Positions 1,797 to 30,557 are shown, counted from the stretch's first letter. The stretch is DNA of 64,000 nucleotides from an uncultured Gammaproteobacteria bacterium (GCA_964483115.1 CAYZZF010000003.1:2772-66771), one strand, 5' to 3'. Numbers and translations are program-made. The notes: generated by a model from the sequence alone, not told the origin.

Positions 1797-2354
1797 ATGA
1801 AAACAAAATTATTTTATTTATTTATATTTCTTTTTATATTATTACAATTTCCCCCAAAGAGTGTTTTCGCACAGGAGAATTCATCTGCTTCATCAGCTAT
1901 ACTTACAAAAGCAGTTGGGGAATCTGTAAGAGATACTAGGGCTAAAGTCTTACAAAAATTTCTTGAATATTATGGTTCTCCGCTTGCTCCTTTTGCGCAA
2001 AATTTCGTAGACTATGCAGATAGGTACAATTTAGACTGGAAACTCGTTGCTGCAATATCAGGAGTCGAATCAACTTTTGGACAGGCTATCCCCAAAAATT
2101 CATATAATGGATGGGGTTGGGGAATCTACGGAAATAACGTAACTCGTTTTGCTTCGTGGGATGAAGGCATCAAAATAGTATCAAAAGAGCTTAGGGAGAT
2201 GTATATGGACAAGTGGGGAGCAAGAGACATTTTTGAAATAGGTGGTATGTATGCACAGTCTCCGACATGGGCTTACCATGTATTGTATTATATGAACCGA
2301 ATTGAAGACTTTAAACTCTCAGATCCTCAGTCGAGTCTTTCAATTACGCTATAA
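1797..2354 (+). CDS. Secreted paralog of the putative peptidoglycan hydrolase (signal peptide plus glucosaminidase/SLT-like domain)
   Basis: Signal peptide MKTKLFYLFIFLFILLQFPPKSVFAQE. AAISGVESTFG...YNGWGWGIYGNN matches the paralog at 988..1560. Confidence 0.4.
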   Translation: MKTKLFYLFIFLFILLQFPPKSVFAQENSSASSAILTKAVGESVRDTRAKVLQKFLEYYGSPLAPFAQNFVDYADRYNLDWKLVAAISGVESTFGQAIPKNSYNGWGWGIYGNNVTRFASWDEGIKIVSKELREMYMDKWGARDIFEIGGMYAQSPTWAYHVLYYMNRIEDFKLSDPQSSLSITL

Positions 2355-2375
2355 ACTCTGTATAATGAGGTGCTG

Positions 2376-2458
2376 CCCAGATGGCGGAATTGGCAGACGC
2401 GCTGGCTTTAGGAGCCAGTGCTCGTGAGAGCTTGAGAGTTCGACTCTCTCTCTGGGCA
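2376..2458 (+). tRNA. tRNA-Leu (anticodon TAG)
   Basis: Acceptor GCCCAGA/TCTGGGC. Anticodon stem CTGGC/GCCAG with loop TTTAGGA. Long variable arm. T-arm GAGAG-TTCGACT-CTCTC. Discriminator A. No encoded CCA. Confidence 0.75.
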
Positions 2459-2464
2459 CTAATT

Positions 2465-3292
2465 ATGGACTCTACTATTGAAAAACAAGAAGACGGGACA
2501 ATAAAACTTACTATTACCATACCTCTTATAAAAATCAAGAAGGCGAAAGAAGAGATTTTGGAAGAAATCGCAAAAGAGGCTAAGATTGCCGGTTTTAGAA
2601 AAGGCAAAGCGCCAAAAAAACTTGTTGAAAAGAAGTTAGACCAGGGAAAACTCCATGAAGAAAGCCTTAAAAAAATTCTGCCTATAGCATATTCTGAGGC
2701 GGTAAAAAAACATAATATTACTCCAATAATGAATCCTAAAATTCACGTAGAGGATCTTTCAGATGATAAAGATTGGAAATTTACTGCCTTAACGTGTGAA
2801 GCACCACAGATTGATCTTACTGAGTATAAAGACGCAATTAAAAAACTCACTGCAAAAAATAAAATTGTAATTCCTGGTAAAGAACAAACGCAAATCAAAC
2901 TTGAGGAGATAATAGATGAGCTTCTTAAAAACATTAAAGTAAAAATTCCAAAAATTATTATTGAGCAGGAAGCGCAAAAACTCCTTGCTCAAACTCTCGA
3001 TGAAATAAAAAGACTGGGTCTTACCCTTGACCAGTATCTTGCATCAACAAATAAAACTATCGAGAGCTTACAGTCAGAATACGCAACAAAGGCTGAAAAT
3101 GATATAAAGATTGAATTTGCTCTTCAAAAGATTGCAGATGAAGAAAACATAACAGTGACTAATGGCGAGATAGATGAAGCGATACAAAAAGCAAAAGATG
3201 AAACGGAACGAGAAAGATTAGAAGCGAATCGGTACCTTTTAGCAAGCATCATTCGTCAGCAAAAAACGCTTGATTTCCTTAAAAGTTTATGA
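2465..3292 (+). CDS. tig: Trigger factor (short form)
   Basis: N-terminal ribosome-binding signature GFRKGKAPKKLVEKK matches GFRPGKVPRKVV. Start moved to the ATG after the tRNA. Shorter than the canonical ~430 aa protein. Confidence 0.55.
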   Translation: MDSTIEKQEDGTIKLTITIPLIKIKKAKEEILEEIAKEAKIAGFRKGKAPKKLVEKKLDQGKLHEESLKKILPIAYSEAVKKHNITPIMNPKIHVEDLSDDKDWKFTALTCEAPQIDLTEYKDAIKKLTAKNKIVIPGKEQTQIKLEEIIDELLKNIKVKIPKIIIEQEAQKLLAQTLDEIKRLGLTLDQYLASTNKTIESLQSEYATKAENDIKIEFALQKIADEENITVTNGEIDEAIQKAKDETERERLEANRYLLASIIRQQKTLDFLKSL

Positions 3293-3298
3293 TAAGGT

Positions 3299-3964
3299 GT
3301 GCACATGAAATCTTTAAAAACAAAAACATCTAAATCAGGAACATTAGATTATATAGATCAAAATCCCATCGAGGCTTTCAAGGAAATAGGGACAGGAGCA
3401 GCGGATTCTCTTGTTAATGACGTAAGCAAACAAGGCGAAAGCGATTTGTGGGAAAAATTGCTCGGCGCAAAAGAAGACTTATCGGACAAATTTTCTGGAG
3501 AATTATCTGAAGGGCAAGAAATTAATTTCAAGAGTCTTAATAAAAAAAGAGCGGAAGAAAAAGACGATTTTGCAGATGTTGAACCTCTTATAGATTACAG
3601 AAGAGAAATTATTCAGGTAGAGCAACGGACTGGACATGAAAACACTAAAGTTATAAGAGCAAAGATTGAAGAAATACTAGTGGAGCTTAAAAAAATTGCA
3701 TCAACTTCTCAAGAAATTGCGATAGAATTCAAACAAATAGCAGTTGAGCAAAGAATAGAAAAACCAGGCGAGTATCATCTTACATTTTTCGAGTGGATGC
3801 TTTCATTAGTCCGCTCAGCTCGAGCAAAAATAGAAGATTCAAGTGCTTGGCTTTCAGTTATGGAAAGCAAAAAGACGCAGAGGACGTACTGGAATATGTT
3901 TGCAAAACACGGGACGACATTTGGACTATCAAACGAGCGAATAGTTGCTACACAAACAGGATAA
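3299..3964 (+). CDS. Hypothetical protein
   Basis: Complete 221-aa ORF, translationally coupled to tig. No recognisable motifs. Confidence 0.35.
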   Translation: MHMKSLKTKTSKSGTLDYIDQNPIEAFKEIGTGAADSLVNDVSKQGESDLWEKLLGAKEDLSDKFSGELSEGQEINFKSLNKKRAEEKDDFADVEPLIDYRREIIQVEQRTGHENTKVIRAKIEEILVELKKIASTSQEIAIEFKQIAVEQRIEKPGEYHLTFFEWMLSLVRSARAKIEDSSAWLSVMESKKTQRTYWNMFAKHGTTFGLSNERIVATQTG

Positions 3965-4068
3965 ACATGACAAATAGGTCTTTTTTACTCCTTAACATCA
4001 TTCTCCTCATTACGGAGAACTGATTGTTTGGGAGAAAAGGTCTCAAGACTAATAAAAGAATAGACATA

Positions 4069-4098
4069 ATCTCCCAAACAGGGAGATTTTTATATTTT
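4069..4098 (+). terminator. Rho-independent terminator (ATCTCCC-aaaca-GGGAGAT plus a T-run)
   Basis: 7-bp GC-rich stem followed by TTTTTATATTTT. It is nested inside a longer inverted repeat, GTTTGGGAGA (4026-4035) / TCTCCCAAAC (4070-4079). Confidence 0.5.
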
Positions 4099-4599
4099 AT
4101 GATAGAAATTATCACAAAGTCAGTAAAACCGCCAAAAGAATCGGTGCGTCCTACGATTGCTATAGAAGAAATTGATGACGTATCGGTTGGCCGCCAAATT
4201 CTTTCGGTAAGAACAATTATTTCGTGGATACCTAACGAAACTGTACTTTGTCTTATAGATACACTCAATCGCAACAATGCTCAATCGGAAAGAGCAAGAC
4301 ACAGTTTAACATTCTCATTAAACAACAATAGCCCAAACACAAACACTTTATACGGACACAATAGGGGACTCTCGGCATATTTTACTTATAATCCTAGTGA
4401 TGAAACAGTAATTGTTGAGTGGGGAACTATTGATCCAAGAGATGGAGTTGCCAAACTGCACACGCATCTTAATCGAGTAATCGATTTTAAAAATAGAAGT
4501 AAAATGGGAATGAAAATAAGCTTAGGATATATTACTCAAGTACAAAGCGGAGTTTGGTTAGCACTTATTGACAATTTGATTAGTTATCAGGAAGAATGA
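4099..4599 (+). CDS. Hypothetical protein
   Basis: The listed ORF 4024..4599 overlaps the terminator. The ATG at 4099 (MIEIITKSV...) sits just after it. Beta-rich, no known motif. Confidence 0.35.
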   Translation: MIEIITKSVKPPKESVRPTIAIEEIDDVSVGRQILSVRTIISWIPNETVLCLIDTLNRNNAQSERARHSLTFSLNNNSPNTNTLYGHNRGLSAYFTYNPSDETVIVEWGTIDPRDGVAKLHTHLNRVIDFKNRSKMGMKISLGYITQVQSGVWLALIDNLISYQEE

Positions 4600-4726
4600 G
4601 CGGAGTCGCCTATGGGAAAAGTTATAAATACTTTACATAGTTCTGGTTTTGTCCCTATAACAGCGGACGGATTTGTCAAGCTTCCCTCATTTTGCTAAAA
4701 TCGACTAGCGATCCATAAATGTGGAT

Positions 4727-4802
4727 GGGCAGTTAGCTCAGTTGGTAGAGCATTCGCTTGACGTGCGAAAGGTCACTGGTTCAAGTCCAGTACTGCCCAC
4801 CA
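4727..4802 (+). tRNA. tRNA-Val (anticodon GAC)
   Basis: GGGCAGT/ACTGCCC acceptor. D-arm AGCTCAGTTGGTAGAGC. Anticodon loop TTGACGT. T-arm GGTTCAAGTCC. Encoded CCA. Confidence 0.8.
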
Positions 4803-4985
4803 ACAATTGACTTTCGGGAATTTTACCCGCCCTCGCTTTCACCGCCGCCGAATTTCGTATTTTGCTTTGCAAAATGCACCGCAAAAGAAACCAAAGAAGG
4901 AATTGTGTTTGCCCCGCCCTTCCCGTGCGCCACAACAAATTTTTTGCTCCCTTTGTCGATAATGATGTTTTATGGTATTATCTGA

Positions 4986-5034
4986 ATAGTACTAAATCTT
5001 TGATGATACTGCAACATAATAGTACTATAAAGAT
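4986..5034 (+). promoter_or_regulatory. Two AATAGTACTA(A/T)A boxes upstream of the XRE gene; candidate operator
   Basis: AATAGTACTAAATCTTT (4986-5002) and AATAGTACTATAAAGAT (5018-5034). Each has a palindromic AGTACT core and their tails are inverted (ATCTTT / AAAGAT). Confidence 0.3.
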
Positions 5035-5039
5035 TACCT

Positions 5040-5255
5040 ATGGCAAAACAAGATTATCCACTTTCAAAAAATCTCAAGAAGCTAAGAGAAAAGAAAGGGC
5101 TTTCGCAAGATCGGCTCGCGAAGCTCGCCGATATCGCCAACAATACGATTATTAAAATTGAACAAGGTGAAAACATGAACCCTCGACTTGATACACTAAA
5201 AAAGATTGCGAAAGCCCTTGAGGTCAAGGTCGATGATTTGATAAATGACAGTTGA
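5040..5255 (+). CDS. XRE-family (Cro/CI-type) HTH transcriptional regulator
   Basis: LKKLREKKGLSQDRLAKLADIANNTIIKIEQGENMNPRLDTLKKIAKAL is a canonical XRE HTH. Confidence 0.7.
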   Translation: MAKQDYPLSKNLKKLREKKGLSQDRLAKLADIANNTIIKIEQGENMNPRLDTLKKIAKALEVKVDDLINDS

Positions 5256-5321
5256 TATTATGAAAAGTTTCGGGGGGTAAACTATAAGTAAGGTCGCGTT
5301 ATAATTAATTTTTTAAAATCT

Positions 5322-6590
5322 ATGGTTAATCAACAAATGTTTGATTACATCAAGCAACAGCTACAACAAGGAGTCAGCCGAGAACAAATCAAAAATTCTC
5401 TTATGGCTAACGGCTGGCAAGAAAATGATATAAACGAAGCTTTTAATATGTTTTCAAATAACCCTGTCCCGTCGCCGCAAGCACCCGCTCCACAAACCAT
5501 AACCGTCTTGCCGGGCGCAGCTGTTATTTTTGGTCAGGCATGGTCGCTCTATAAACAGAGACTAAGAACTTTTTTGGGGATAATGATAATCCCAGTGTTA
5601 GTTTTAATTGGTCTTATGGTGGTGCTTGCGGGCGGCGGATTTTTAGGCCTTACACTTCTTTCTTCAAAATTTGCCGTTGGAGGAATTGGACTTTTGATAA
5701 TTTTGGGAATTGTATTTTTCTTGGCTATTTTCATAAGTCAAGCGTGGGGCCAAACTGCTTTGCTTTATGCAATTAAAGATAGTCAGGAAGGCATAGGGGT
5801 TAGTGAAGCGTATCGCCGCGGTTGGCACAAAATACTTTCTTATTGGCAGGTTGGCCTTTTGGCAGGATTTATTACGATGGGCGGATTTTTATTGCTCGTC
5901 GTGCCCGGAATAATTTTCGCAACTTGGTTCAGCTTGGCTGTATTCGTTTTGATTGCCGAGGACTTGAAAGGAATGGATGCTTTGCTCAAAAGCCGCGAGT
6001 ATGTCAAAGGAAAATGGGTGGAAATTTTCTGGCGTTTCCTTTTCGTCAGTATTATTTCACTCATTATTTCATTAGTTTCAATTCTTATTTTCACCTTCCT
6101 GAAAATTCCGTTTGGCGCGCAAATTAGTCCCTTCGTAATCGGACTATTTTTGACGCCACTAGTAATGAGCTATTCATACTTGGTATACAACAATATCAAG
6201 GCAATCAAAGGCGAAATTGCTTTTGCGCCAACCGGCGGACAAAAAGCAACTTTCGTTATTCTAGGCATTCTTGGTTTATTGTTAATCCCCACGATACTTT
6301 TCTCTACCATTTTCTTGAGTCTTGGTTCTGCAAAGGAAAAAGCGAGAGATGTAAGAAGGCAAACCGATCTGAATCAAATTCGTGTGGGACTTGAATTATA
6401 TTACGACCAGTATAATGCCTATCCGTTCTCGCTGAACGAATTATCGCCTCAATTTTTGCCGACGACACCCGTTGATCCAAAAACAAATATGCCTTACCAA
6501 TATCAATTACAGCCAGACGGCAAAAATTATAAAGCTTGTGCAGAGTTTGAAGCTACTAAAACCGAGAAATGCGTTACTTCGCAGTTCTAA
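5322..6590 (+). CDS. Polytopic membrane protein with a C-terminal pseudopilin/GspG-like globular domain
   Basis: Small N-terminal soluble domain, a Pro-rich linker, then about 6 TM helices. The C-terminus ARDVRRQTDLNQIRVGLELYYDQYNAYP matches the RDxxRxxDLxQIxxALExYY...YP head-domain motif of the pilins at 27045 and 27524. Confidence 0.5.
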   Translation: MVNQQMFDYIKQQLQQGVSREQIKNSLMANGWQENDINEAFNMFSNNPVPSPQAPAPQTITVLPGAAVIFGQAWSLYKQRLRTFLGIMIIPVLVLIGLMVVLAGGGFLGLTLLSSKFAVGGIGLLIILGIVFFLAIFISQAWGQTALLYAIKDSQEGIGVSEAYRRGWHKILSYWQVGLLAGFITMGGFLLLVVPGIIFATWFSLAVFVLIAEDLKGMDALLKSREYVKGKWVEIFWRFLFVSIISLIISLVSILIFTFLKIPFGAQISPFVIGLFLTPLVMSYSYLVYNNIKAIKGEIAFAPTGGQKATFVILGILGLLLIPTILFSTIFLSLGSAKEKARDVRRQTDLNQIRVGLELYYDQYNAYPFSLNELSPQFLPTTPVDPKTNMPYQYQLQPDGKNYKACAEFEATKTEKCVTSQF

Positions 6591-6830
6591 TTGATTTGTG
6601 GTAAAGATATGGAAAAATATGAAGAAATAAAAAAACCCATTAAGCAAATATTTTTTGATAATTTTCTTGGAGGCATTGCCTGGGCACTTGGAGCAACATT
6701 TGGTCTTTCGCTCATAGTTACATTTCTAACTGTTATTTTAAAAAATATTGATTTTATACCTATTTTCGGAGGCTTTGTTTCAAAAATAACAAGTTATGTT
6801 TTACAAAATAACCCTCACTTGGTAAAATAA
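6591..6830 (+). CDS. Small membrane protein
   Basis: 79 aa with one or two hydrophobic helices. Abuts the preceding gene. Confidence 0.3.
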   Translation: MICGKDMEKYEEIKKPIKQIFFDNFLGGIAWALGATFGLSLIVTFLTVILKNIDFIPIFGGFVSKITSYVLQNNPHLVK

Positions 6831-6834
6831 GCAA

Positions 6835-8088
6835 ATGAATGACTCCAAAAGACCAATCAAATTGACAGAAAGTCACCAACAAATAGGACAAGAACAGGAT
6901 TTATTTACTTTTTCAGACCTTGTCGGCTCGGGTCTTCCACTTTTTACACCTAAGGGCGCAATACTTCGAAAAGTGCTTAATGACTATATAGATGAACTTT
7001 TAATAAAAGCAGGCTATCAATTTGTTTGGATTCCTCATATCGCAAGAAAAACGCTTTACCAAAAATCTGGCCATCTTGAAAAATTTTCGCAAGACATGTT
7101 TCCTGTTATGAAAGCAAAAGGACGGGAGTATATCTTAAAGCCTGCTAATTGCCCCCACCATATACAAATTTTTTTAAGAAAACCCTGGTCATACAGAGAA
7201 TTACCGCAAAGATATGCCGAAAGCTCAACCCAATATAGATCCGAACAATCGGGAGAACTTGAAGGACTGACGAGAGTTTTGGGAATGACGCTTGATGACT
7301 CACACGTTTTCGCCCGCCAAGATCAGATAAAAGAAGAGTTCAAAAAAGCACTCGAAATAAATAAACAAATGCTTTCTGATTTTGGCCTTTCCCACTGGAT
7401 AAGACTCTCTACCTGGAACGCCAAAGATAGAAAAAAATATTTGGGCGATGAAAAAACATGGGAAAACATGCAAAATCTTATGGAGGAAATTTTAAAGGAG
7501 CTTAAAGTTAAATATAAAAGGACTGAAGGCGAAGCTGCATTTTATGGGCCTAAGATGGATTTAATAGTAACTGATTCTCTTAAGAAGGAATGGCAATTAT
7601 CAACAATCCAAGTTGATTTTAATCTTCCGCAGCGTTTTAATCTTTCATACACAGACAAAACAGGAAAACAAAAAAGATTAGTAATGCTTCATAGGGCAAC
7701 TTTTGGATCTTACGAACGATTCTTGGCAATGATAATAGAACACTATCAAGGAATATTTCCTTTGTGGCTTTCGCCTGTTCAGATAGTTATACTTCCAATT
7801 GCAGATCGACATTTTGAGCTTGCAAAAAAGATTTACAAAATATTAATAGAAAATGGGGTCCGGGCAGAAGTTAATGACAAATCGCAAACCCTGCCTTCTA
7901 AAATCCGCGATGCTACTTTACAAAAAGTACCATATATGAGTATAATAGGAGATAGAGAAGTAGAAAAATCAAAACTTGAGGAAGAAAAAATCGTATCGGT
8001 TCGAACAAGAGGTGGAAAAGACTTGGGGCAAGTTAAACTTGTCCAATTTTTAAAAAGGCTACAAGAAGAAATTGATAAAAAGGTCTAA
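6835..8088 (+). CDS. thrS: Threonyl-tRNA synthetase (N-terminally truncated: catalytic core plus anticodon-binding domain only)
   Basis: Class II motifs ANCPHH and RVLGMTLDDSHVF, plus the C-terminal anticodon-binding fold. Lacks the TGS and editing domains. Confidence 0.8.
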   Translation: MNDSKRPIKLTESHQQIGQEQDLFTFSDLVGSGLPLFTPKGAILRKVLNDYIDELLIKAGYQFVWIPHIARKTLYQKSGHLEKFSQDMFPVMKAKGREYILKPANCPHHIQIFLRKPWSYRELPQRYAESSTQYRSEQSGELEGLTRVLGMTLDDSHVFARQDQIKEEFKKALEINKQMLSDFGLSHWIRLSTWNAKDRKKYLGDEKTWENMQNLMEEILKELKVKYKRTEGEAAFYGPKMDLIVTDSLKKEWQLSTIQVDFNLPQRFNLSYTDKTGKQKRLVMLHRATFGSYERFLAMIIEHYQGIFPLWLSPVQIVILPIADRHFELAKKIYKILIENGVRAEVNDKSQTLPSKIRDATLQKVPYMSIIGDREVEKSKLEEEKIVSVRTRGGKDLGQVKLVQFLKRLQEEIDKKV

Positions 8089-27527: not shown

Positions 27528-28138
27528 GGTGTTACATTTGAACTTGTTGCTCCATAATTACAAATATAACTCGAGGAGGATCCACAGTAAACACCGACTG
27601 GAACATTAGTACATTGTGCTCCTTGATTGCACGCCTGAGGATCTTGTGCGCCTCGCTCTAAAGATGTATAAAGATAGTATGATTGCGCTCCTGTTGTAGG
27701 AGAGGAGTAATACACGTAATTTTGTGAAGAAAGTGGATCATTGGGAACAGAATTTATGTATGGACTAAAATTAGTGGTAGAAAGAGTTGATCCCCAAACT
27801 ACACAATTTCCATCCAACCTTTTTATTCTAAAATCAGTAGCTGTACACTGAGGAGGATAATACCCAAAATCGTTGTAGTATGTCTCTAATGCCCTTTGAA
27901 TTTGCGCCAGATCTGATTTTCGCTGAGCATCTCTTGCTTTCATCAATTGCCCCACTGGGTTTATAATTGTAAACAAAAAGACTGCCATAATCCCCAGTAT
28001 CGCTATTACCAATAACAGCTCAACTAGGGTAAAACCATAAAAATTATTTTTTCTGAAAGAAAGTAGCTTAAAAAGGTTCCAAGAGCCAAAAATGGGCCGA
28101 AAGGAATTGTTGCGATTTTTAACCTCTTTTTCTTCCAC
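27524..28138 (-). CDS. Type IV pilin
   Basis: YG|FTLVELLLVIAILGIMA, then ARDAQRKSDLAQIQRALETYY. Long leader. Overlaps the 3' end of pilD, so the true start may be internal or non-ATG. Confidence 0.6.
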   Translation of the reverse strand: MEEKEVKNRNNSFRPIFGSWNLFKLLSFRKNNFYGFTLVELLLVIAILGIMAVFLFTIINPVGQLMKARDAQRKSDLAQIQRALETYYNDFGYYPPQCTATDFRIKRLDGNCVVWGSTLSTTNFSPYINSVPNDPLSSQNYVYYSSPTTGAQSYYLYTSLERGAQDPQACNQGAQCTNVPVGVYCGSSSSYICNYGATSSNVTP

Positions 28139-28818
28139 ATAATTAGTATGAGGCCAGCAACTGCTCCTGTCAAGAAGGCTATATATAAAGCTATGATAAT
28201 CTTTGGAAATCCTAGCAGCAATCCCAAAAAAAAGACAAGTTTAACATCTCCTAAACCCATCCCTCTACCTTTGGTAATAAAGTATAAAAATAAAAAGAAT
28301 AGAAACACACCAATTGAGGAGACAATATTAGATATCAAGATATTAGAATGTAAGAATATTAAGTAAAGAAAGGAGATCGCAATTGCTGGGTAAACAATTT
28401 TATCTGGGATAATGCCATATTTAAGATCGGTAAAAAAAATTACTATCAAAGAGGAAACAATAAACCAATAATACAGGGCATCAATCATATACTTGATAGT
28501 TAACACTTGATACCCAATACTTATTTGGGGTAATAGATAAACAGCCGATATAAATAAAACTGCCGTTATTAATTCGACAATGGGATAATAAACGGAGATA
28601 GAAGAGTGACAAAGCCTACATTTACCTCTTAGAAGAAAAAATGAAAGAATGGGAATCATATCAAACCAGACAAGTTTTTTTCTGCACTTGTCACAATACG
28701 ATCTTCCTTTAAAAGGGGACTCATCATTCGGAAGACGATCAATAAGAACATTTAAAAAGCTCCCTACTGCAAGACCTAGAATGAATGATAAAGAAATGAA
28801 TGATAAAGAAAACAACAC
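28024..28818 (-). CDS. pilD: Prepilin peptidase (A24 family)
   Basis: N-terminal CxxC...CxxC zinc motif (CDKCRKK...CRLCH) and polytopic peptidase_A24 helices. Confidence 0.75.
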   Translation of the reverse strand: MLFSLSFISLSFILGLAVGSFLNVLIDRLPNDESPFKGRSYCDKCRKKLVWFDMIPILSFFLLRGKCRLCHSSISVYYPIVELITAVLFISAVYLLPQISIGYQVLTIKYMIDALYYWFIVSSLIVIFFTDLKYGIIPDKIVYPAIAISFLYLIFLHSNILISNIVSSIGVFLFFLFLYFITKGRGMGLGDVKLVFFLGLLLGFPKIIIALYIAFLTGAVAGLILIMWKKKRLKIATIPFGPFLALGTFLSYFLSEKIIFMVLP

Positions 28819-28918
28819 TATTTATAGAATAGCATAAAACAATACAGTCAAAACAAAAACAGCTTAAATAATATGAATACTATAATATGAGTACTATAGT
28901 GTACTATTATATTTTTGA

Positions 28919-28977
28919 ATGTAGCGAGTCTGTTTCACCTTAGTCTGTTTCACCTTCCAAGTGAAATAGCTTCGCTA
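28919..28977. repeat. REP-like structured repeat left of the RAYT gene
   Basis: GTAGCGAG...CTTCGCTAC outer stem enclosing two GTCTGTTTCACCTT copies and a CACCTTCCAAGTGAAA hairpin. Confidence 0.5.
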
Positions 28978-28998
28978 CCTGTTACTATCTTAAGAAAC

Positions 28999-29664
28999 TT
29001 ACTCTAAAACTAGATGTTTTATTTCTTCTAATCTTCTTCCGTAATCAATATTATCCAAAAGAAATTCCTTATAATCATCTAATGTTTTGAATTGCTCAAG
29101 GATTGTATCAGCTAGAACCAAACCAGATCTTCCTGCTAAAAAATCTGGTAATGATGACCATGAATAAGATAATAAATCCTGCTCATCAACGACGGTTGAA
29201 ACAACTGGGTTCAAATGAATATACCGGGAAACATGCAATAATTGCTCATTGGATTCTATATGAGAGGATTTAAATACACCTTGAAATACAGGTCCAATTC
29301 TATTGTATTTAGTATTGAAATATTTAGTATAGCTATTCGTAAATTTACTAAGAAATGTAGAGATTCCTTTGTCTTTAGTTTGTCTTAGAAGAAAATGGAA
29401 ATGATTCGGCATAAAAACAAAAGAAATTATTTCAACAAATTTTTCGCTTTTTTCCATATCCGAAATTATTCGATTGCGTTCTTCTTGAGAAAACTTCTTA
29501 AATCTCGAAAGCCTCACAGGCGGAGAAATAAAACGGTAATAGGATAGTGTTAGAAGAGCTTGTTTATAATCATTTTTGTTTAAAAATGTCGGTTGACGCG
29601 CAACTCCACGATTAAAAATATGATAATATTCTTCATTTACTAAAGGGGTAGATCTGTAAGACAC
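28999..29664 (-). mobile_element. IS200/IS605-family Y1 (HuH) transposase, REP-associated tyrosine transposase (RAYT)-like
   Basis: YHIFNRGV, HuH motif MPNHFHFLL, catalytic-Tyr region SRYIHLNPV, and C-terminal YSWSS. Matches the TnpA_REP/RAYT pattern. Flanked by REP-like hairpins. Confidence 0.7.
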
Positions 29665-29710
29665 ATTCTAAAATTAGCAGAATATTAAGATTGTGTCAAC
29701 AGGTGACGAG

Positions 29711-29752
29711 GCTGTTTCACCTTCCAGGTGTAATAAATCAGGTGTAATAAAT
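29711..29752. repeat. REP-like repeat right of the RAYT gene
   Basis: GCTGTTTCACCTTCCAGGTG has a CACC-TTCCA-GGTG hairpin and is a near-copy of the left-flank core. Followed by a CAGGTGTAATAAAT direct repeat. Confidence 0.5.
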
Positions 29753-29939
29753 GGAATAAAGAGATTCTTGCCGAATTATCTCTAGATCAGATTTTACAAT
29801 TTCAAGAAGATTTATAAGGTCGGGCCTCGTTGACTTCTGTTCTGGACGATGAAAATAAAAAATTAAAAGATTATTTTAATAAAGTAAAACCTTCGGGGGG
29901 GGTCGTAAAACTGAAACAGAGATTTTACAACAAGTATAT

Positions 29940-30557
29940 TTATGGAGTAAAAGGCCCTTCCGACATAGTTCCGCTAACAGGATTAGTTCCTGCACCCACA
30001 GCGCTCATGCATGCTACCTGCACTAAACCTTTTGATGAATCAAAGTAAACTATACCTTGGCTTTTCGAACAAGGTGTCCCTGTACCGGTTGCTTTTAATA
30101 ATTCGTTGTTTGATTCAACTGTGGTCCAAATTGCAAATTTAGTAGGAGTAGCACTATCAACTGCATAGCAGATATTTACTTGAACATCACTTGTTAAGGT
30201 TCCACCAGCACAAGGTGTCCCCCCTGTTATGTCTGGCAAGGATACGACATTAGTTATATCCTTTGAAGCCGTTAAAACATTTTGCCAAGTACCTGGAGTA
30301 GCGGTACCGTCAACTACAGGAATAACCGAATTGTTTGAAGTTACATAATTAGACATACTCTTTCCCAGACCTTCCACAGCAGAAATTCTATTTGCGTCTC
30401 TTCCTCGAGCTAATTGTTCCACAGGGTTAATAGCTAGAAGGACAATTGCTGCAAGAACCCCTATGACCGCGATAACCACTAGAAGTTCTATCAACGTAAA
30501 ACCTTTTTTTGAAGTTAAAAGTAAAAGATTAAATAATTTCTTAAAAGAACTTTTCAT
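29940..30557 (-). CDS. Type IV pilin (candidate major pilin)
   Basis: KKG|FTLIELLVVIAVIGVLAAIV. Has its own near-consensus promoter. Lies adjacent to pilC/T/B. Confidence 0.7.
   Translation of the reverse strand: MKSSFKKLFNLLLLTSKKGFTLIELLVVIAVIGVLAAIVLLAINPVEQLARGRDANRISAVEGLGKSMSNYVTSNNSVIPVVDGTATPGTWQNVLTASKDITNVVSLPDITGGTPCAGGTLTSDVQVNICYAVDSATPTKFAIWTTVESNNELLKATGTGTPCSKSQGIVYFDSSKGLVQVACMSAVGAGTNPVSGTMSEGPFTP

Follow-up and report, generated by a model that had tools for sequence, protein, structure and literature searches.

The window, by which we mean the whole 64-kb stretch of DNA that was analysed, carries a pilus locus in which pilB, pilT, pilC, a pilin gene, a Y1/HUH gene and pilD follow one another on the same strand. 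The Y1/HUH gene lies in the gap between the pilin gene and pilD and is bordered on both sides by short hairpin repeats. The features discussed below are as follows (coordinates within the window):

28024..28818, minus strand: prepilin peptidase gene pilD (A24_N_bact and Peptidase_A24 domains), from ORF and domain search
28916..28978, no strand assigned: 'double-foot' palindrome 5'-GTAGCGA...TCGCTAC-3' (palindrome 28921-28978), from inverted-repeat search, partial matches to the covariance model R1 and DNA folding
28942..28983 (core 28951-28981), minus strand: downstream inverted repeat (R1, 42.6 bits, E 1.5e-12)
28999..29664, minus strand: Y1/HUH gene, an ORF of 221 aa with a GTG start
29671..29699, minus strand: putative promoter-like site of the Y1 gene, read from the sequence
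29698..29739 (core 29700-29730), plus strand: upstream inverted repeat (R1, 49.9 bits, E 5.5e-15)
29724..29752, plus strand: 14-nt tandem duplication CAGGTGTAATAAAT x2, covering the hairpin 3' arm and tail at the outer edge of the upstream repeat
28779-28808, 28868-28895, 28926-28955 and 29724-29751: the four tandem duplications near the Y1 gene, from a tandem-repeat scan
29940..30557, minus strand: pilin gene (N_methyl domain), from ORF and domain search

The Y1/HUH gene and its pilus neighbourhood

The Y1 gene is present once in the window. Its coding sequence and the three motifs that a sequence-only reading of this DNA had reported were all located: MPNHFHFLL at residues 85-93, SRYIHLNPV at 146-154 and YSWSS at 167-171, the WSS tail occupying residues 169-171. 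The histidines of the metal-binding HuH motif (H88-F-H90) and the single predicted catalytic tyrosine, in the YIHLNP motif on the helix that follows (Y148), are invariant among 30 homologues. The protein matches the Pfam family PF01797 (Y1_Tnp) over residues 43-150 with 36.8 bits (gathering score 23); nothing else in Pfam is matched at E <= 1, and so there is no match to Bac_DnaA_C, HTH_23 or HTH_28. An AF2 model computed from a 30-sequence alignment reaches a pLDDT of 87, and the C-terminal 60 residues are helical in this model.

Both neighbours named in the sequence-only reading, pilD and a promoter-driven pilin gene, were found, the latter with a strong promoter-like site (TTGACA-18-TATACT, 30603-30574 on the minus strand, 11/12 consensus matches) just upstream. 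The pilin gene, the Y1 gene and pilD are co-directional, with the Y1 gene downstream of the pilin gene, and no intrinsic terminator was predicted between the three. A second promoter-like site suggests that the Y1 gene has a promoter of its own: a -35 TTGACA box (29699-29694) is followed after 14 nt by TGC-TAATTT (29679-29671), with the start codon 6 nt further on. This site was not called by a generic promoter scan because its -10 hexamer matches the consensus at only 3/6 positions. The resulting mRNA would probably be leaderless, for which a GTG start without a Shine-Dalgarno sequence is a weak combination. The TTGACA box overlaps the upstream repeat (29698-29739) by 2 nt; it is present in 7/9 aligned upstream regions and missing from downstream and solo copies of the repeat. 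With a promoter abutting the upstream repeat, autoregulation of the Y1 gene would be possible. An effect of the Y1 unit on pilin expression is speculative.

The content of the pilin-pilD gap varies between relatives (comparison loci carry L numbers here). In L108, glycosyltransferase genes are found there instead, while the gap of L110 (Levyibacteriota; 5980-7120) is occupied by another Y1 gene, which encodes a protein of 216 aa, is 36% identical and lies on the opposite strand. A palindrome of its own, CAAGGTCGGACCTTG, accompanies that gene and is present in four exact copies within ~1 kb; the gap also carries a solo copy of the window's motif (6060-6101). One exact and one near-exact copy of the L110 palindrome lie in frame within the ORF. 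As an element of the window, CAAGGTCGGACCTTG was rejected, its one match there having three mismatches and not being significant. Pilus loci free of the Y1 gene were seen in relatives (L108 and L109) and contain no copy of the repeat. An empty pilin-pilD site that would define the ends of the element, sought via PilD homologues, was not found, the gap being filled by the L108 glycosyltransferase genes or the different Y1 gene of L110. Given this variable gap, and since most members of the Y1 family lie elsewhere, the family as a whole has no conserved association with the pilus genes.

Some further features of these spacers were seen in passing. The AT-rich spacer between the pilin gene and the upstream repeat holds a G8/C8 homopolymer (29895-29902), and the spacers on either side of the Y1 gene of L003 and L007 also have G/C runs, though only of 4-7 nt. 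In L007 (10720-11700), the downstream repeat and pilD are separated by an inserted HepT/MNT toxin-antitoxin pair, on the near side of which lies a duplicate of part of the pilD 5' end.

Flanking inverted repeats, solo copies and tandem duplications

The core sequence CTGTTTCACCTTCCARGTG has just two exact copies in the window, one at 28945-28963 and the other at 29712-29730, each on the plus strand, and 100 shuffled sequences gave no match to it. The near-identical cores of the sequence-only reading are thus real, with the left coordinates to be shifted by one base, as the left copy including its leading T/G spans 28944-28963. Because the core is palindromic in itself, the flanks can be aligned either way; the inverted alignment is the longer one (36 nt, 75% complementarity), and the two flanks, which had been described by their shared core, are better aligned as inverted repeats. 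Read in gene orientation, they are two copies of one motif with the 31-nt consensus CAGGTAGCGAGGCTGTTTCACCTTTCAGGTG, whole repeats measuring about 31-42 nt. Each has a GTAG-containing head on the gene side and an outer hairpin of 5-6 bp with a 3-nt loop (CACCT-TTC-AGGTG; generally CACCT-N3-AGGTG).

The upstream copy points its head CAGGTGACGA toward the gene, has the outer hairpin CACCT-TCC-AGGTG and stops 35 nt short of the start codon. The downstream copy, also with its head on the gene side, begins 17 nt past the stop codon. The CACC..GGTG pairing previously ascribed to both hairpins applies to the right one, while the left hairpin pairs TTTCAC with GTGAAA. The larger left stem-loop, GTAGCGAG...CTTCGCTAC, was confirmed: its 18-nt arms (28921-28938 and 28961-28978) are 83% complementary and, folded as single-stranded DNA, it reaches z = -3.6. 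The fold of the upstream copy is weak (centroid energy -3.5 kcal/mol, z about -1.4 to -2.1). The double-foot palindrome combines the downstream repeat with a mirrored half-copy and is enlarged by a 15-nt tandem duplication (28926-28955); R1 matches it partially at two plus-strand sites, 28942-28972 with 27.8 bits and 28916-28941 with 14.2 bits.

With R1, a covariance model built from the 42-nt motif, the inverted pair was found complete in all 14 loci with full flanks, whatever the neighbourhood (the window, L003, L007, L027, L011, L019, L024, L016, L102, L103, L105, L106, L093 and L059). The upstream motif is kept in nine aligned genomes while the surrounding intergenic DNA diverges, and the repeat sequence is preserved across proteins of only 50-80% identity. 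A GT[AG]G head is present in 21/26 motif copies, 10 nt 5' of the short hairpin; it stands at the hairpin foot only in the double-foot form. Hairpin positions are paired in 92.9% of cases, with a few compensatory changes, and a search of Rfam with the repeats found no matching family. Conservation of sequence and arrangement supports the reading of the flanking hairpin repeats as putative cognate sites of the Y1 gene.

A dispersed REP core, one of the two outcomes named in the sequence-only reading, was not found in the window. An R1 scan of the 64-kb window with filters off gave nothing at E < 0.2 beyond the copies at the gene, a 720-kb contig of the L003 genome holds one exact core, and GTDB genomes hold at most three exact cores each. 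The repeat is low-copy, with 0-3 extra exact copies where tested, and is not an abundant REP. Among 68 metagenome matches, ~22 are true copies, more than half of these in loci without a Y1 gene. Such solo copies can be clustered: a Levyibacteriota contig (L028) has five to six same-strand copies in 8 kb, about one per intergenic gap, L014 has four and L095 three, and a Daviesbacteria contig (L024) has extra copies adjoining the gene. Solo copies are mostly intergenic and often have a stop codon no more than about 25 nt away, with no strict orientation rule relative to the neighbouring genes. The genes around them are accessory or toxin/antitoxin genes (e.g. AbiEii, PIN, Phd/YefM, Ntox33, GNAT and HAD). 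This solo and clustered pattern in other Microgenomates would fit a repeat that the enzyme occasionally helps to spread. It is REP-like apart from the low copy number, a behaviour also described for some TIRYT repeat families (PMC3733652). A 1.78-kb presence/absence difference between two contigs that are 99.9% identical (L079 6182-7956 versus L053), with one 435-aa ORF inside, was considered as a repeat-driven event and rejected: its start coincides with a tRNA 3' end and lies at a distance of 37 nt from a solo repeat, and it is probably unrelated.

The units are also marked by small tandem duplications (two copies of a unit of about 10-28 nt). The window has eight. Four of them fall in a stretch of about 1 kb that includes the Y1 gene, and one of the four lies within the 5' end of pilD, where it keeps the reading frame. 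Other genomes have comparable duplications of independent origin, and across 11 independent loci their density is 1.07 per kb in the repeat-gene-repeat unit +/- 150 nt versus 0.13 per kb outside (p = 2e-7), an enrichment of about 8-fold. A duplication covering the loop and 3' arm is found in 11/50 motif copies versus 2.75% of control windows; nine of these 11 are gene-flanking copies, and the duplicated sequences vary between genomes. Hairpin-induced slippage and cut-and-rejoin footprints of the enzyme are both possible origins.

Class of the Y1 protein and known relatives

The only NCBIfam match of the Y1 protein is REP_Tyr_transpos (NF047646, an equivalog model), at 49.9 bits and thus below the cutoff of 80; the same search gave no match to transpos_IS200. 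Within the family, the RAYT model REP_Tyr_transpos is matched by 30/30 members (E <= 0.01) and the IS200 model by 5/30, weakly. A single-sequence search of the PDB returned marginal matches only, and a profile search does not discriminate between ISDra2 (E 0.011) and TnpAREP (E 0.072), so a fold search was required to separate the two. In that search with the AF2 model, the top match is E. coli TnpAREP with its REP hairpin (4er8_A; E 5.5e-6, TM 0.70, 192 columns), followed by the transposases of IS608, ISDra2 and IS200 at E >= 3e-3 (IS608 2vjv: E 3e-3). The model has a TnpAREP-like monomer fold, which also fits the solved Y1 transposases.

The motifs point the same way. Invariant in the family are NHFH, FQG (PVFQG in the protein studied here), YIHLNP and WSS. 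In Table 1 of Quentin et al. 2018 (PMC6006769), subclass 2.1 of the TnpAY1 proteins has NH[YF]H, FQ, Y[IV]HLNP and an SS tail with a median length of 238 aa, whereas IS200/IS605 TnpA (subclass 1.1) has DH[VI]H and Y[IV]ENQ and is core-only, at ~152 aa. The signature of the Y1 protein (NHFH, PVFQG, YIHLNP and WSS; 221 aa) agrees with subclass 2.1, and that of subclass 1.1 is absent in Y motif, HuH motif and length. The evidence supports an HUH/Y1 protein of the RAYT-like class and not an IS200-like one, which, as placed by its motif signature, fits TnpAY1 class 2 and most closely subclass 2.1. Against an IS200 identity stand the Y---NP motif, NHFH, the length of 221 aa and the lack of an NCBIfam IS200 match. 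The HMM search that the sequence-only reading had proposed favours its RAYT-like assignment, with Y1_Tnp above the gathering score and IS200 unmatched, over the ordinary IS200 copy that it had named as the alternative.

Subclass 2.1 has been described with a C-terminal HTH-like domain (Bac_DnaA_C, HTH_23 or HTH_28; PMC6006769). It was mapped by Quentin 2018 (PMC6006769) to RAYT group 1 of Bertels et al. 2017 (PMC5581495), and its correspondence with the TIRYT/TIRtron systems of Di Nocera et al. 2013 (PMC3733652) is a suggestion of the same authors (PMC6006769). The Y1 unit resembles TIRYT/TIRtron (PMC3733652; subclass 2.1, PMC6006769) in its motifs, in a length near 238 aa and in its low copy number. 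In both, terminal inverted repeats flank the gene and there is no abundant REP family. TIRYT repeats may hold self-complementary tracts and form small dimer or cluster families, described as moderately abundant (PMC3733652), and clusters are found in relatives here. Unlike subclass 2.1, the Y1 protein has no Bac_DnaA_C or HTH match at its C-terminus; unlike TIRYT, its repeat is unrelated to the GGGGWSAS consensus, has a GT[AG]G head and a small hairpin, and is kept across proteins only 50-80% identical. The host belongs to the Patescibacteria (Microgenomates), which are not named among TIRYT or RAYT hosts in the literature searched.

Canonical RAYT/TnpAREP proteins (E. coli YafM of the REPtron, 4ER8; group 2 and 3 RAYTs of Pseudomonas) share with the Y1 protein the HUH motif, the single tyrosine and Y---NP, and provide its top structural match. 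Single-copy occurrence, vertical inheritance and purifying selection are likewise common to both, as are flanking palindromes in inverted orientation that have a GT[AG]G head, and the downstream double-foot palindrome resembles those of subclass 2.4 (PMC6006769). Unlike canonical REPs, which number tens to hundreds of copies, the repeat has 0-3 extra exact copies where tested, and 10 nt separate its GT[AG]G head from a short hairpin; the NCBIfam score is under the cutoff, and the protein is ~55 aa longer than E. coli TnpAREP. The 'RAYT/REP' label of the sequence-only reading therefore holds for the class of the enzyme but not as a strict REP system: wherever its copy number could be assessed, the repeat was not abundant, and TIRYT/TIRtron is the better fit.

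With IS200/IS605 TnpA (IS200, IS608 and ISDra2), the unit shares the HUH/Y1 fold, a length of ~0.8 kb, hairpins near both ends and no evident target-site duplication. It differs in having Y---NP instead of Y---Q, NHFH instead of DH[VI]H and 221 instead of about 150 aa. Furthermore, it has no tnpB gene, it is single-copy in the window and syntenic across species, and its end repeats extend as inverted and not as direct repeats.

Residence of the unit and its interpretation

The gene order pilB-pilT-pilC-pilin-Y1-pilD on one strand is common to the window, L003, L007 and L027. In these three relatives the Y1 protein is about 80%, 76% and 77% identical, respectively, to that of the window; full-length identities are 79-81% for PilB, 77-81% for PilT, 70% for PilC, 54% for PilD and 38-58% for the pilins. 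Conservation of the Y1 protein is on par with that of PilB and PilT and higher than that of PilC, PilD and the pilins. Pairwise dN/dS of the Y1 gene is 0.10-0.13 (about 0.12) at dS 0.45-1.3, and each protein variant is found in a single context across all contigs bearing it. Judged from this divergence, the Y1 gene is a long-term resident under strong purifying selection and not a recent insertion, contrary to the recent event implied when it was first read as 'inserted'. It is a stable, single-copy resident of the pilus locus in the window, and its presence does not indicate a recent disruption.

Nor is such a gene unusual in CPR genomes, as had been supposed: the Y1 protein has >6,100 homologues, the named ones coming from Levy-, Davies- and Gottesmanbacteria or the 'Patescibacteria group', and 'transposase' is the sole name they bear in the source records. 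Clustering at 50% identity gave 340 clusters with E <= 1e-30. No description of RAYT-like genes in CPR was found in the literature searched. Homologues at 50-68% identity lie in unrelated contexts (e.g. prfA-ftsE, rpsG-fusA, eno, maf and toxin cassettes), so over longer time the unit moved or was moved. In L102 (2570-8231), the Y1 unit and two opposite-strand genes sit between rpsG and fusA, breaking the usual rpsL-rpsG-fusA order. Altered copies were also seen. In L016 (3659-4022; the same as L041 7898-8261), the Y1 gene is internally deleted, with ~29 N-terminal and 33 C-terminal residues left between two intact repeats; this remnant has a MITE-like look and adjoins a tRNA gene. L019 has a partial N-terminal duplicate of the Y1 gene. 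L024 has a second downstream palindrome together with the last ~45 nt of the gene at 6554-6650 (90% identical to 2299-2395), and the two such copies (2284-6650) bracket the Y1 gene and Ntox33, DUF4279 and DUF6984 cassettes split by solo repeats.

Taken as a whole, the locus is probably explained by a single-domain, RAYT-like HUH/Y1 endonuclease that has a cognate inverted-repeat pair, is a fixed, single-copy resident and is accompanied by a low-copy repeat; we hold this explanation with reasonable though incomplete confidence. By analogy with E. coli TnpAREP and IS608 TnpA, the Y1 protein would bind single-stranded DNA at its folded hairpin and would then cut and rejoin nearby DNA via an HUH-bound metal and Tyr148. 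In the lineage of the window, the unit does not act as a jumping insertion sequence; it is fixed between the pilin gene and pilD, and the putative promoter next to the upstream repeat may let the enzyme regulate its own gene.

A still-autonomous, IS200-like insertion sequence, in which the 0.8-kb repeat-gene-repeat moves as a whole at a low rate and is single-copy here by chance, is the strongest competitor, and we consider it unlikely. It would account for the unit with both repeats in unrelated contexts across lineages (rpsG-fusA, eno, maf, prfA and toxin cassettes), for decay products such as the L016 internal deletion, the L019 partial duplicate and the duplicated 3' end and repeat of L024, and it agrees with the description of RAYT group 1 among the more IS-like RAYT groups (PMC5581495). 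However, the position in the pilus locus is shared by genomes near synonymous saturation at a dN/dS of about 0.12, each protein variant keeps to a single context with one copy in the window, and the protein has Y---NP and 221 aa instead of Y---Q and about 152 aa. Viral contigs are without close relatives of the gene: they yielded only distant Y1 proteins (23-29% identity) and chance matches to the core, with no sign of a phage vector.

That the hairpins serve to regulate the pilus operon, for instance as terminators or mRNA stabilisers, and lie beside the Y1 gene by coincidence is very improbable. They do occupy intergenic DNA of a co-directional operon, the transcript could include them given that no intrinsic terminator is predicted from the pilin gene to pilD, and REPs influence mRNA stability in other bacteria (PMC3733652), but the repeat pair also flanks the Y1 gene at 10 non-pilus loci, has neither a T tract nor an Rfam match, and is absent from the Y1-free pilus loci L108 and L109. 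Least credible, with a probability close to nil, is a chance or low-complexity similarity of the flanks, which could appeal to stems that are short (5-6 bp) and individually weak, as in the upstream fold, and which is rejected by the absence of the 19-mer from all 100 shuffles, by R1 E-values of 1e-12 to 1e-15 and by conservation across many genomes.

A more far-reaching extension of the RAYT-like explanation, which we regard as a distinctly long shot, is that the Y1 protein and its repeat form a host-retained system in Microgenomates that edits single-stranded DNA in situ and shuffles accessory cassettes between co-oriented repeats. Compatible with it are the same-strand repeat arrays by toxin, antitoxin and polymorphic-toxin genes (L028, L024, L095 and L103), as are the independent duplications enriched 8-fold at the repeat edges, which could be cut-and-rejoin footprints. 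If true, such a system would be an HUH-driven analogue of integron cassette arrays.

The housekeeping-like conservation of RAYT-like 'domesticated' transposases is a long-standing puzzle, as they are not known to bring a benefit to their hosts. The Y1 gene belongs to this known kind of domesticated transposase, which is common in CPR, and the 'transposase' label that such genes carry overstates their mobility. The family is large in CPR/Microgenomates, its cognate repeat is well conserved and low-copy, and the genomes are very small; it could therefore be a simple system for asking what RAYT-like enzymes do, with a small protein and a defined 31-42-nt repeat substrate that suit in-vitro cleavage tests.
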